IMG/VR virus record: IMGVR_UViG_2526164649_000015
Direction: 5' to 3' (one strand)
Length of the DNA: 12,017 nt
Source: a virus
Lineage: Duplodnaviria > Heunggongvirae > Uroviricota > Caudoviricetes
Shown: piece by piece, positions 3,725 to 10,187 of the stretch
How positions within the stretch are numbered: position 1 is the first letter of the stretch
Layout of the letters: the number at the start of each line of letters is the position of its first letter
Program-made: the position numbers and the translations under genes
The notes under the pieces: model-generated
Told to the model about the DNA's origin: nothing
The model's input: the letters and a program-made list of their open reading frames with translations, nothing else
Database searches by the model: none

Positions 3725-4057
3725 ATGCTCACCTCAGAACAACACAGGTGCTCCAATGAAAAAAGAAATTTTAGCGCAGAGTTTAAACGCGAATCCGCTC
3801 AACTGGTTGTTGACCAGAAATACACGGTGGCAGATGCCGCCAAAGCTATGGATGTTGGCCTTTCCACAATGACAAGATGGGTCAAACAACTGCGTGATGA
3901 GCGTCAGGGCAAAACACCAAAAGCCTCCCCCATTACCCCGGAACAAATTGAAATCCGTGAGCTCAGGAAAAAGCTACAACGCATTGAAATGGAGAATGAA
4001 ATATTAAAAAAGGCTACCGCGCTCTTGATGTCAGACTCCCTGAACAGTTCTCGATAA
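3725..4057 (+). CDS. IS911-like OrfA (helix-turn-helix/leucine-zipper protein); canonical start out of frame, alternative in-frame ATG at 3725
   Basis: The ATG at 3756 followed by A6 (3759-3764) is one base out of frame with the body; canonical IS911 OrfA begins MKKRNF (ATG plus A7, from memory). In-frame ATG at 3725 would give [20 protein letters not shown]...; stop at 4055-4057. Confidence 0.6.
4006..4012 (+). other. A-AAA-AAG -1 frameshift heptamer of the IS911-like element
   Basis: tt[a aaa aag]gct in the OrfA frame, the canonical IS911 slip site. Confidence 0.75.
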
Positions 4058-4909
4058 TCGGGAAACTCAGAGCGCATTATCCTGTGGTCACACTCTGCCA
4101 TGTGTTCGGGGTTCATCGCAGCAGCTACAGATACTGGAAAAACCGTCCTGAAAAACCAGACGGCAGACGGGGCTGTATTACGTAGTCAGGTACTTGAGCT
4201 ACATGGCATCAGCCACGGTTCGGCCGGAGCAAGAAGCATCGCCACAATGGCAACCCGGAGAGGCTACCAGATGGGACGCTGGCTTGCTGGCAGGCTCATG
4301 AAAGAGCTGGGGCTGGTCAGCTGTCAGCAGCCGACTCACCGGTATAAACGTGGTGGTCATGAACATGTTGCTATCCCTAACTACCTTGAAAGGCAGTTCG
4401 CCGTGACCGAGCCAAATCAGGTGTGGTGCGGTGATGTGACCTATATCTGGGCGTACCTCGCCGTTGTTCTCGACCTGTTCGCAAGAAAACCAGTGGGCTG
4501 GGCCATGTCGTTCTCGCCGGACAGCAGGCTCACCATGAAAGCGCTGGAAATGGCATGGGAAACCCGTGGTAAGCCCGGCGGGGTGATGTTCCACAGCGAT
4601 CAGGGCAGTCATTATACGAGCAGGCAGTTCCGGCAGTTATTGTGGCGATATCAGATCAGACAGAGTATGAGCCGGCGCGGAAACTGCTGGGATAACAGCC
4701 CAATGGAACGCTTCTTCAGGAGTCTGAAGAACGAATGGATGCCGGTGGTGGGTTACGTAAGCTTCAGCGAGGCAGCTCACGCCATAACGGACTATATCGT
4801 TGGATATTACAGCGCACTAAGACCGCACGAATATAACGGTGGGTTACCCCCAAACGAATCGGAAAATCGATACTGGAAAAACTCTAACTCGGTGGCCAGT
4901 TTTTGTTGA
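4012..4909 (+). pseudogene. IS911-like OrfB (DDE transposase), disrupted by a frameshift at a G4 run and a 5-codon in-frame gap in the catalytic core
   Basis: The -1 frame after the slip site reads [53 protein letters not shown] and stops at 4183-4185. The rest of the transposase ([12 protein letters not shown]... to stop 4907-4909) is in the next frame, joined at GGGG 4169-4172. Core reads [14 protein letters not shown] against DLTYVATQEGWLYLAGIKD in the neighbouring OrfB. Confidence 0.75.
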
Positions 4910-4917
4910 CCACTTCA

Positions 4918-5150
4918 GAATGGATGTCGTGGAGATGGTATCCGCAGATAGCGCCGCACTTCTGAAGAAAATCAAATGGCCTGATAAGGTTAAAAACCTT
5001 GAGTTGCTTGGGCGCCATGTTTCTGTTCAGGCGTTTAAAGACAACGTCAAAAATGAAGTGACTGGCGCTGACGGAGGACCAGTCAGAACAGAAATTACCA
5101 AATTAACGCCTGAGCAGGCCGCAGAGGTGTATAGAAAAATGATGGGCTAA
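4918..5150 (+). pseudogene. phage terminase small subunit, C-terminal fragment (N-terminus lost at the IS911-like boundary)
   Basis: Frame is open straight from the IS terminus; product ...[33 protein letters not shown] resembles terminase small-subunit C-termini as I recall them; stop 5148-5150 lies 2 bp before the terminase large-subunit ATG. No helix-turn-helix N-terminal domain present. Confidence 0.45.
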
Positions 5151-5152
5151 GT

Positions 5153-6022
5153 ATGCCGTTACCATTCCCCTTCGATTTTAAACATCCTGATTACCAGATG
5201 GTTTTTGAATGGCGGATGGAACGCCTACAGCGCATTCGCCAGAATCCTGAAATATTGCCTGCACTAAAACAGTTTTACCGTACCAACCCGGCTCAGTTCA
5301 TTATCGACTGGGGCATGACAACGGACCCGCGTAATATTGATTATGGCCTGCCGGTGACCATTCCGTTTTTACTCTTCCCTAAGCAGGAGGAGTGGATCCA
5401 CTGGATTATGAAACGCTGGAGCAATCGGGAGAATGGTATTACCGAAAAATCCCGTGAAATGGGGCTCAGTTGGACCGCGATCGGACTGGCCTGCTCGCTT
5501 TGTCTCTTCAACAAAGAAATGGTTATCGGTTTCGGCTCCCGTAAAGAGGAATACGTCGACAGCACCGGTGACCCGAAAGCATTGTTCTGGAAGGCGCGCA
5601 AGTTCGTGGAAACACTACCTGTAGAGTTTCGCGGTTCGTGGAGCGAGAAGAAGCACGCGCCATATATGCGTGTTGAGTTTCCTGAAACTGGCGCGGTTAT
5701 CAAAGGTGAGGCTGGCGATAATATCGGTCGTGGTGACCGTACGACCCTTTATTTTGTGGATGAGGCTGCTTTTCTCCAGCGACCATTACTTATTGATGCC
5801 GCGCTTTCCCAGACAACCCGATGTCGTATCGATCTCTCATCGGTTAACGGTATGAACAACCCCTTCGCACAGAAGCGGCACAGTGGAAAAATCCCGGTGT
5901 TTACGTTTCACTGGCGTAGCGATCCGCGTAAAGACGATGAGTGGTCCGACCTTACTGACGGTTACTGCGGTATTTCAGACCGTAATGAATACAGGAGAGG
6001 TGTCAGTGGGAAGTACGGATAA
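5153..6022 (+). CDS. phage terminase large subunit, N-terminal ATPase domain only (C-terminal nuclease domain absent)
   Basis: Deviant Walker A-like KSREMGLSW and Walker [13 protein letters not shown] ends at 289 codons (stop 6020-6022), whereas terminase large subunits are normally much longer; no nuclease-like continuation in any frame. Confidence 0.65.
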
Positions 6023-7975: not shown

Positions 7976-7987
7976 ACAGGAGAAAAC

Positions 7988-8344
7988 ATGCAGTCACGAT
8001 CACTTCTTCTTGACACCGGGACATGGGATATCCTGCTTGATGATACCGGAAATCTTGCCATTACTGATAATCCCCATGCGGTAGCTCAGGATGTGGCGTG
8101 TGCGTGCAGTACTTTTCTGGGGGAGTGCTGGTACGACTCAACGGCTGGCATACCTTACTGGCCACGCATCCTCGGACACTGGCCCGGCAAACAACTGGTG
8201 AATGCCACTCTGCAACAGGAAGCACTTAAACTGCCGACCGTGAGCGCCGCTGTCTGCCTGGTCACAGCTGATCAAACCCGGACAGTAACAGGTGTGCTGC
8301 GTATTACAGATACCAATAATGACATTTTTACGGTACTGCTATGA
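7988..8344 (+). CDS. Mu gp46-like small baseplate protein
   Basis: 118 aa; AGGAGA before ATG 7988; stop overlaps the next ATG (ATGA at 8341-8344); size and position match gp46/gpW-type proteins; motif-level resemblance only. Confidence 0.5.
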   Translation: MQSRSLLLDTGTWDILLDDTGNLAITDNPHAVAQDVACACSTFLGECWYDSTAGIPYWPRILGHWPGKQLVNATLQQEALKLPTVSAAVCLVTADQTRTVTGVLRITDTNNDIFTVLL

Positions 8345-9581
8345 GTGAAAATAAATCTTTTTCTACCGCAGTGCCCGCTGTACAGATTTCGGATAGCGGG
8401 CTGAATGTGCCGGATGAAGCGGATATTCTGAGCGGCAGGCTTGCTGATTTTTCGGCGGCGCTGGGCGGGGCCATGAGTACCAGTCTGAGCAGTCCGCAGG
8501 GACAACTTGCATCCAGCGAAAGCGCCATTATTGCGGATAAAAACGATCAGTTGCTGTATATCGTTAACCAGATCAACCCTGACTTTTCCAGTGGTCGCTT
8601 TCAGGATGCAATAGGCAGGATTTATTTCCTGGAGCGCCGCGGGGCCACAGGTACGACAGTAACAGCGACCTGTACCGGGCTGGTTGGCACGCTGATCCCG
8701 GCGGGCAGTATGGCGCAGGATGAGGCCGGTTATAAGTATGTCAGTCAGTCAGACGTCACTATCGGCGCATCAGGGCAGGTTGATGCGGTATTTCTGAATT
8801 TGTCCACCGGCCCCGTCGGCTGTCCTGTGGGGACGCTGAATAAAATTTATAAGGCAATACCTGGCTGGTCAGGTGTCACTAACGCCAGTGCCGGTGTGCC
8901 GGGCAGCGATGAGGAAACCCGTGCGGACTTTGAAAACCGCCGACGTAATTCAGTTGCCCGTAATGCCCGGAATATTCTGGAAGCCATCCGGGGTGAAATA
9001 CTCTCCACGGTGGAAAACGTGGTGGATGTTTACGTCACCCATAATCCGAAAAAACAGAACAAAAAGCCGGAGTCAGTCAGTATCCATTAACACCCGGTTC
9101 GCTTTATGTTGGCGTGTACGGCGGCAGCCCGGCAGATATCGCGGCGGCCATCTGGCGTAAGGCTCCGCCGGGTATTGATATGAATGGCAACACAACGTTC
9201 ACTGTTGCAGATAAGGAGTACGATCCGCCGTATCCTGAATACGTGATCAGCTGGCAGACACTCAAACCCGTCAGTCTGCATGTCAGTGTGACTCTGAAAA
9301 AAAGTGACTACCTGCCTTCAGATATTACCCGACAGGTACAGCAATCCGTGCTGGACGCATTTAATGGTACAGATGGTGGTCTGCGGGCAAGGGTTGCCTC
9401 TGTTGTCTCTGCCGGGCGCTACTATGCCGGCATTTACAAAACCGATCCGGAACATATTGATATTCTGGGCCTTACTGTGAGCCGTGACGGTTCGTCATGG
9501 ACAACGGCTGTCACTTTCGGGATAGATGAGATTCCGGTTCTGGATGTGTCGGATATCAGTGTGAAACTCCAGGAGGCATAA
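8341..9581 (+). pseudogene. baseplate J-like protein (Mu gp47 / P2 gpJ family), split by a frameshift at an A6 run
   Basis: Two ORFs, 8341..9090 and (extended by hand) 9045..9581, sum to about the size of baseplate J proteins. Restoring one A in the A6 run 9049-9054 gives a continuous ...YVTHNPKKTEQKAGVSQYPLTPGSLYVGVYGGSPADIAAAIW... Confidence 0.6.
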
Positions 9582-9582
9582 C

Positions 9583-10187
9583 GTGCAGAATGTGGCTGCC
9601 ACTGTGCTTGCGCAGTATGCTGCCAGCCCCCGACTCAATGCCCTCATTAACAGCTTTAACGCAGCGCTTTCCCCCGACAGTTTTATCAGTGATTTTTATG
9701 GTCTTATCTGGAACATCGATACCGCAGAAAAGTATGGTCTTGATGTCTGGGGAAAGATTGTGGGTGTCAGTCGCCGGCTGACGGTAAAGGACGATTTTAA
9801 TTACCTGGCTTCAGCGAGTCCAGGATGGACACCCCGGTAATGGATGATCCCTGTCCGTTTAATCAGGCACCGTTTTACAACGGAAAATCGGATACCCGGA
9901 CTGTTGACCTGTCTGATGCTGTATACCGGCGGCTGATACTGATGAAAGCCATGTCGAACATTACTGACTGTTCCGTTCCGGATATTAACCGGATGCTGAG
10001 ATTTATGTTCGGAAAAAAACGGCGGGCTTATGTTCTGAATAATGGTGGGCTGAGGATGAGTTACGTCTTTGAGTCCGCGCTCTCGTTGGCAGAACTGGCG
10101 ATTATCCAGTCGTCGGGTGCACTGCCATCCCCGCCGGGTGTTTATGTTTCAGTAGTTTTAAAGGAGTCCCGTAATGAAGGCCAGTGA
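9583..10187 (+). pseudogene. Mu gp48 / P2 gpI-like tail protein, split by a frameshift at a C4 run
   Basis: ORFs 9583..9840 and 9801..10187 (frame extended by hand) overlap; adding one C to CCCC 9832-9835 fuses them (...ASASPGWTPPVMDDPCPF...). Total about 200 codons, positioned between the J-like and tail-fiber genes. Confidence 0.5.

Follow-up and report, generated by a model that had tools for sequence, protein, structure and literature searches.

Flow-based sequencing chemistries undercount long homopolymers, and the errors that 454 pyrosequencing and Ion Torrent make at such runs are the closest described counterpart of the sequence changes analyzed here. Two biological systems also bear on them. 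One is pseudogene formation and prophage decay in Shigella, and the other is IS911, an insertion sequence (IS) of the IS3 family with a natural, functional frame change at a programmed -1 ribosomal frameshift motif. We analyzed a 12,017-nucleotide stretch of DNA (the window) held as virus record IMGVR_UViG_2526164649_000015, in which an IS911 copy stands next to a prophage remnant with a baseplate/tail-fibre module. The original prediction described four frame disruptions in this stretch, each a single-base change at a homopolymer run, and offered either decay or systematic homopolymer errors as the explanation. Both apply, to different sites. Errors would account for the first three sites, which lie in IS911 orfA, IS911 orfB, and the baseplate J gene, and decay accounts for the fourth only, in the gene for the DUF2612/baseplate wedge-1 protein. 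We assign a probability of roughly 0.85 to this combination of run-length miscalls at three sites and at one additional T6 run, plus one ordinary DUF2612 pseudogene. The likeness to 454 and Ion Torrent errors consists of one-base run changes that are mostly 7 to 6, are private to the draft, outnumber substitutions, and recur within a batch of drafts; the difference is that one short run is lengthened, from G3 to G4. Shigella prophage decay is matched by the sublineage-inherited DUF2612 frameshift, the reduced prophage, the surrounding IS2, IS600, and IS911 elements, and the independent lesions of the main lineage. Decay fits just one of the four reported sites and a 15-bp deletion in IS911, but not the other three sites. 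The two reported IS911 lesion sites also differ from the programmed frameshift site of IS911. The homopolymer frameshift cluster is not a biological feature and brings no new biology, and both disruption by insertion sequences and prophage decay are well understood in Shigella.

Look-ups of exact sequences, and the contigs retrieved through them, matched the window at 100% to positions 3803-15819 of AKMV01000020.1. This 15.8-kb contig belongs to the draft genome GCA_000268085.1 of Shigella flexneri 2850-71, and the strain table of PMC6397287 also links this strain to this accession. The TerL-fragment protein encoded in the window was used as the query and returned ten assemblies with the same locus (L005-L014). 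L005 (UGYT01000001) and L006 (CP024470) are long chromosomal records of ~4.8 Mb each, L007 is the source contig itself, and L008-L014 are seven short contigs assembled from unrelated public sequencing runs, L014 from DRR016010. CP024470 is the closest complete genome, and the orthologous comparison with it spans 11.3 kb. The other loci compared were those of the main S. flexneri lineage (L015-L024), the sister draft J1713 (L025, AFOW01000015.1), and a second contig of the 2850-71 assembly (L031, AKMV01000027.1); that assembly was sampled over ~21 kb in total. The annotated IS911 of Escherichia coli O121 and the prophage of E. coli VL40 were the intact references.

Over the 11.3 kb, the window differs from CP024470 by four one-base indels (at 2869, 3759, 4169, and 9049) and one substitution, and all four indels fall in mononucleotide runs. 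None of the four is found at the orthologous positions of the closest relatives; the change at 9807-9808, in DUF2612, is not private in this way. The first reported lesion (3759-3764, + strand) lies in codons 2-3 of IS911 orfA, after the start codon. Alignment gives A6 in the window and A7 in intact IS911, and the orthologous IS911 copy in L006 and L005 also has A7. The second lesion (4169-4172, +) is a G4 run in orfB that aligns with G3 in intact IS911. The run is G3 in the orthologous L006 copy and in all 14 other IS911 copies tabulated, and no full-length exact match to the G4 form was found among 4858 IS911 places in complete E. coli genomes. Reversing both lesions in silico restored an OrfA of 100 aa and, with the ribosomal slip simulated, an OrfAB of 384 aa, both identical to the CP024470 products. 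The third lesion (9049-9054, +) was defined by alignment to the E. coli VL40 prophage and relatives as A6 versus A7 in the baseplate J/gp47 gene. This gene (8341-9581, +; Pfam Baseplate_J in relatives) gives separate reading frames of 249 and 155 aa in the window and is one 413-aa gene in L002, L005, L006, and L008-L014. The run is A7 in 20 of the 21 loci that carry the site and A6 in the source contig only. The 249-aa truncated product occurs in 1 contig and the intact, otherwise identical 413-aa product in 132, and A6 was found in none of the seven complete E. coli genomes carrying the segment. Reversal of this lesion in silico also gave a product, of 413 aa, identical to that of CP024470. 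All three single-base changes were placed correctly in the original prediction. The fourth private change, which that prediction did not contain, is T6 (2869-2874, unstranded) in place of the T7 of complete genomes, and it was found by the comparison with CP024470. It lies at the end of an IS600 fragment and alters only the tail of the open reading frame (ORF) of a pgrR fragment, giving 169 aa instead of 160 aa. The 169-aa form is present in two drafts only, 2850-71 and J1713, and the 160-aa form is present in 11 contigs.

The scarcity of other differences is clearest in a 5.5-kb single-copy phage segment. Here, the source is identical to six independent assemblies (L005, L006, L008, L009, L010, and L013) at every base except the A7 to A6 change. 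Among the other assemblies, 0-2 substitutions separate one from another, and indels are absent. Along the whole of AKMV01000020.1, three of seven seven-base runs are contracted and none of 12 six-base runs. Seven-base runs make up 0.31% of the contig bases, yet they hold three of the four private indels (P ~1e-7). The association with homopolymers that had been proposed is real, but the grouping of the lesions within 6 kb is in itself unremarkable. The contraction recurs on AKMV01000027.1, where yecE is frameshifted by T7 to T6 (L031 1388-1393) and the repaired product is found in 390 contigs, CP024470 included. Altogether, five of the ten seven-base runs checked in the 2850-71 assembly are read as six. 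In the sister draft J1713 (L025, 4089-15434), seven one-base deletions within 11 kb are private, and each lies in a mononucleotide run: two are A7 to A6, one is T7 to T6, two are A6 to A5, and two are GG to G. J1713 shares T6 with 2850-71. The yecE gene on AKMV01000027.1 is also 5′-truncated by a prophage integrase junction. Compared with complete genomes, an IS600 copy of J1713 contains a tandem duplication of 23 bp, and the IS911 orfB of this draft is in three pieces.

The A6 form of IS911 has a diagnostic product. With A6, an ATG at 3725 in the left end of IS911 is in frame with orfA and opens a 110-aa OrfA (window 3725-4057) that has 13 N-terminal residues in place of MKK and meets the normal OrfA at residue R4. 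With the usual A7, this ATG opens a 16-codon ORF overlapping the orfA start. The 110-aa OrfA was found at at least 12 different insertion sites, and the normal 100-aa OrfA was found in 662 contigs. Nearly all of the A6 sites are in drafts with neighboring accessions, GCA_0002134xx-2137xx and GCA_0002680xx-2682xx, from strains K-227, K-404, K-1770, 2850-71, and others; the strain names are in part those given in PMC6397287. The second IS911 of the 2850-71 assembly, on AKMV01000027.1, is also A6. When an allele goes with the sequencing batch regardless of phylogeny or insertion site, it bears the mark of a systematic miscall. Because A6 follows the draft batch in this manner, we read it as such a miscall. 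A candidate pairing of L031 and L026 as orthologous loci was rejected; IS911 is the sole part they have in common.

The lesion in DUF2612 behaves differently. The gene (9583-10187, +) is split into 85 aa and 120 aa, and Pfam Phage_Wedge1 is found on both halves in nine further assemblies. The original prediction located the lesion at the C4 run at 9832-9835 (+). That candidate was rejected when the window and L002 were set side by side; the C4 run is the same in the intact and broken alleles. The true lesion is 25 nt upstream, where alignment to the E. coli VL40 prophage and relatives shows GG (9807-9808, +) in place of the GGG of intact alleles. The C4 run directly precedes the premature stop codon at 9838-9840. 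GG is present in L005-L013, source L007 included, and GGG in L014-L024, L001, and L002. Besides the source, GG is carried by both long chromosomal records (4.8 Mb each) and by six short contigs from public runs, and all of the ten-assembly set except L014 split DUF2612 into the same 85-aa and 120-aa products. The exact 85-aa product was found in 209 contigs, including contigs of up to 4.83 Mb. Among complete genomes, all nine E. coli genomes with the DUF2612 gene have GGG and 0/9 have GG. DUF2612 is intact at 201 aa in L002 and L015-L024, and repair of the window sequence also gives 201 aa, with 2 residues unlike L015. Because GG is common to a sublineage across independent assemblies and the outgroups have GGG, we hold GGG to GG to be a genuine, inherited frameshift that makes DUF2612 a pseudogene in an S. 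flexneri sublineage. The deletion would probably have arisen by replication slippage and then become fixed in one S. flexneri sublineage, and fixation would have been possible because the prophage was already dead and DUF2612 was under no selection. In L014, the segment equivalent to window positions 9012-9808 has four substitutions and an intact GGG, all as in the main-lineage allele. This patch may be either a gene conversion from a second prophage copy that restored the frame or a short-read merge of two paralogous copies.

Baseplate J is broken in the main S. flexneri lineage as well, at other positions. The 155-aa C-terminal fragment of baseplate J is found in 723 contigs and was considered as proof of a widespread A6, which was rejected; the run is A7 in those genomes. 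The split in the 723-contig form is made by a 4-bp AGTC deletion 22 nt downstream of the A-run, together with an IS600 truncation. In the main-lineage loci (L015-L024, position 3962, equivalent to window 9071-9074), the 4-bp deletion lies in a AGTCAGTC tandem repeat of baseplate J. The alignments show that baseplate J is truly decayed in the main lineage, through other, independent lesions.

Sites 1-3 and T6 are most likely run-length miscalls in the draft consensus. We read sites 1-3 as artefacts because they are private to the draft, are absent from the orthologous CP024470 copy, and show a contraction that recurs elsewhere in the assembly and in sister drafts. The sequencing chemistry or the consensus caller would count long mononucleotide runs one base short and would count one short run (G3 to G4) one base long. 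These miscounts would split otherwise intact reading frames, and the three breaks would be absent from the bacterium itself. The comparisons show where the lesions lie, what each one is, which are private or shared, and that similar contractions recur in the assembly and in sister drafts. From this we infer both that miscalling, as opposed to very recent mutation, produced the private changes and that a flow-based platform was used. Several observations weigh against this interpretation. The attribution is drawn from the pattern of the changes, and the sample of the assembly is small. The A6 form of IS911 is also found outside the draft batch, in the complete genome CP026871.1 and in one short contig from a public run. 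Among records of complete E. coli genomes it occurs in ~11 of 4371, and the seven fully matching records listed are all enterotoxigenic E. coli (ETEC) plasmids of 142-148 kb. A diverged baseplate J homologue in Salmonella Typhimurium (P0008, 4 contigs) has the same A-run frameshift, with an out-of-frame tail after NPKK. Real slippage likewise favors long A/T runs, and the A6 in ETEC plasmids, CP026871.1, and the public-run contig, together with the Salmonella baseplate J frameshift, make these tracts natural hotspots too. Because the same frameshift appears in another genus, the baseplate J A-tract appears to be a recurrent hotspot, either of mutation or of miscalling. Finally, a crippled IS copy and a dead prophage are unselected, and real private mutations would be tolerated in them.

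These points lead to the alternative that survives best, in which all four lesions and T6 are real in 2850-71 and arose by replication slippage in unselected DNA, perhaps with a mismatch-repair defect. The setting suits it. Head and tail-tube genes are missing from the prophage, which insertion sequences interrupt. Baseplate J was broken independently in the main S. flexneri lineage, by the 4-bp deletion and IS600 truncation, and the same tracts are changed elsewhere, in the ETEC plasmids and in Salmonella P0008. We nevertheless consider it unlikely. The ratio of indels to substitutions is 4:1 against the closest genome and 1:0 over the 5.5-kb segment, which is far from normal bacterial divergence. 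Half of the sampled seven-base runs are contracted, including that of the chromosomal yecE gene on the other contig, which is intact in 390 contigs. The IS911 A6 form follows the draft batch, not phylogeny or insertion site, J1713 has its own set of seven private run deletions, and the full-length G4 form was never met among the 4858 IS911 places.

Repeat assembly could also have mixed reads from true A6 copies into the IS911 and IS600 sequences, or gene conversion between copies could have had the same outcome. In favor of this explanation, three of the four private indels are inside multicopy insertion sequences, the second IS911 of the same assembly is also A6, and at least one complete genome carries A6 copies. 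We regard it as very unlikely, since copy-specific markers survive to either side of the lesions, with the 15-bp deletion retained and the rest of IS911 equal to the L006 copy, positions 3928-3964 included. No other copy has a G4 to act as donor, and the single-copy lesions in baseplate J and yecE are left unexplained.

A further proposal, which we find extremely doubtful, makes the A7 tract after the orfA start a natural slippage switch, with A6 giving an extended but complete OrfA/OrfAB from the ATG at 3725. If this were true, A6 copies would stay active and could spread, which would account for A6 in ETEC plasmids and CP026871.1 as well as at numerous insertion sites of several S. flexneri strains. 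It is scarcely credible that the run changes as a group are functional, as phase-variable switches, programmed frameshifting, or transcriptional slippage for transposase or baseplate expression: IS911 and IS2 do use A6G programmed sites, both intact (4006-4012 and 1199-1205), and A6 would allow the N-terminally extended 110-aa OrfA, but the homologues are single uninterrupted ORFs with no conserved frame break at the four sites, isolates show no switching (A7 in 20 of 21 loci, and a DUF2612 G-run state that follows lineage), runs of six are short for efficient slippage, and the baseplate module belongs to a prophage unable to make particles.

The interpretation as miscalls plus one pseudogene has consequences for annotation. 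The IS911 transposase, baseplate J, and, on the other contig, yecE are not to be annotated as strain-specific pseudogenes, and DUF2612 is. Shigella pseudogene counts, which are used in arguments on genome decay and convergent loss, would be inflated by this draft batch at genes with seven-base A/T runs. Even without reads, artefact can be separated from decay by asking three questions: is the lesion confined to one assembly, how many indels are there per substitution, and what share of the long runs is contracted?

The IS911 copy is 1235 bp long (3684-4918, +) and was delimited by aligning it with the intact, annotated E. coli O121 element, by its inverted repeats, and by the in silico repair. 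It is 97.3% identical to the annotated element. The features of IS911 are all present: terminal inverted repeats at 3684 and 4918, beginning TGAAGTGG, orfA and orfB, the A AAA AAG motif, and the rve domain, with Pfam matches to HTH_Tnp_1 and rve (DDE). The programmed -1 frameshift motif is intact at 4006-4012 (+), and the programmed motifs of IS911 and IS2 are unrelated to the reported lesions. The copy thus resembles known IS911 in its inverted repeats, orfA/orfB arrangement, intact slippery motif, and OrfA/OrfAB products after repair, and differs from it by a five-residue deletion beside the first catalytic aspartate and by having no matching target duplication.

The deletion is a 15-bp in-frame loss in orfB with its junction at 4446/4447 (+), found by alignment, missing from the original prediction, and not located at a homopolymer. 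Five residues are lost from the conserved VTYIWTGKRWAYL stretch right after the GDVTYI motif, leaving VTYIWAYL. The deletion is present in the window and in the orthologous CP024470 copy and is not in the other IS911 copies compared. Because it is common to both, the two copies are orthologous and the deletion is genuine. Because five transposase residues are deleted, the window copy is probably inactive regardless of its frameshift state. The deletion sits between short CTGG direct repeats.

No matching target-site duplication was found at the IS911 ends, which are bordered by ACC and GAA. In CP024470, a pair of inverted IS911 copies with swapped flanks (L006 3015-9766) encloses ~4.3 kb of other phage genes and an IS600. 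In 2850-71 and the NCTC strain, one IS911 joins the same outer flanks as the CP024470 pair. Because the ACC and GAA flanks do not match and the CP024470 copies have exchanged flanks, this pattern looks like recombination between IS911 copies, with a chromosomal inversion. A cluster of nine substitutions in 37 bp of orfA (3928-3964), relative to E. coli IS911 and the J1713 copy, is shared with CP024470 and resembles a mosaic patch acquired from a divergent relative of IS911.

The window is ordered, from left to right, as a hydrolase gene split by IS2, a pgrR fragment, the 3′ part of IS600, IS911, terminase stubs, and the baseplate/tail-fibre module. The terminase remnant (4919-6022, +) was identified by PHROGs terminase matches and consists of a small-subunit fragment followed by a 289-aa TerL fragment (5153-6022). 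A deletion at ~5941/5942 joins the TerL fragment to the 3′ end of a baseplate gene, and homology to the VL40 prophage starts at 5942. The module is of the myovirus type and encodes plug, hub, spike, sheath initiator, baseplate J, DUF2612/wedge-1, tail fibre, and tail-fibre assembly proteins. No head, sheath, or tail-tube genes were found in the prophage remnant, and insertion sequences adjoin it. Judged from this gene content, the module is a dead prophage remnant that would be unable to make particles. More complete, nearly identical prophages are present in enteroinvasive-type E. coli. The same baseplate gene order is found in Pantoea phage PA-1 and in Klebsiella phages such as ST15-VIM1phi2.1, and compared with these phages the window keeps a remnant only. 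Their baseplate J proteins are 56-57% identical to that of the window, and the nearest sequenced phages are only this similar.

The left end of the window carries an intact IS2 (791-2121, +), recognized by Pfam HTH_Tnp_1 and rve and by comparison of its flanks with the uninterrupted J1713 allele. The A AAA AAG motif for programmed -1 frameshifting in IS2 is intact at 1199-1205. IS2 interrupts the hydrolase gene and is bordered by a 5-bp target duplication, CGCCC, at 786-790 and 2122-2126; the hydrolase gene had been described as frame-intact, which it is not. The uninterrupted hydrolase of strain J1713 has 306 aa. The 211-aa ORF at 1-636 is an internal-start fragment of this hydrolase, and the first ~46 codons of the gene are at 2122-2257. 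The pgrR gene, for a LysR-type regulator, is present as a fragment truncated by the IS600 fragment. The latter is the 3′ part (orfB) of IS600 (2831-3683, -), identified by BLAST to the IS600 copies in L005, L006, and L015 and by Pfam rve; one of its ends cuts off pgrR, and its other end is cut off by IS911.

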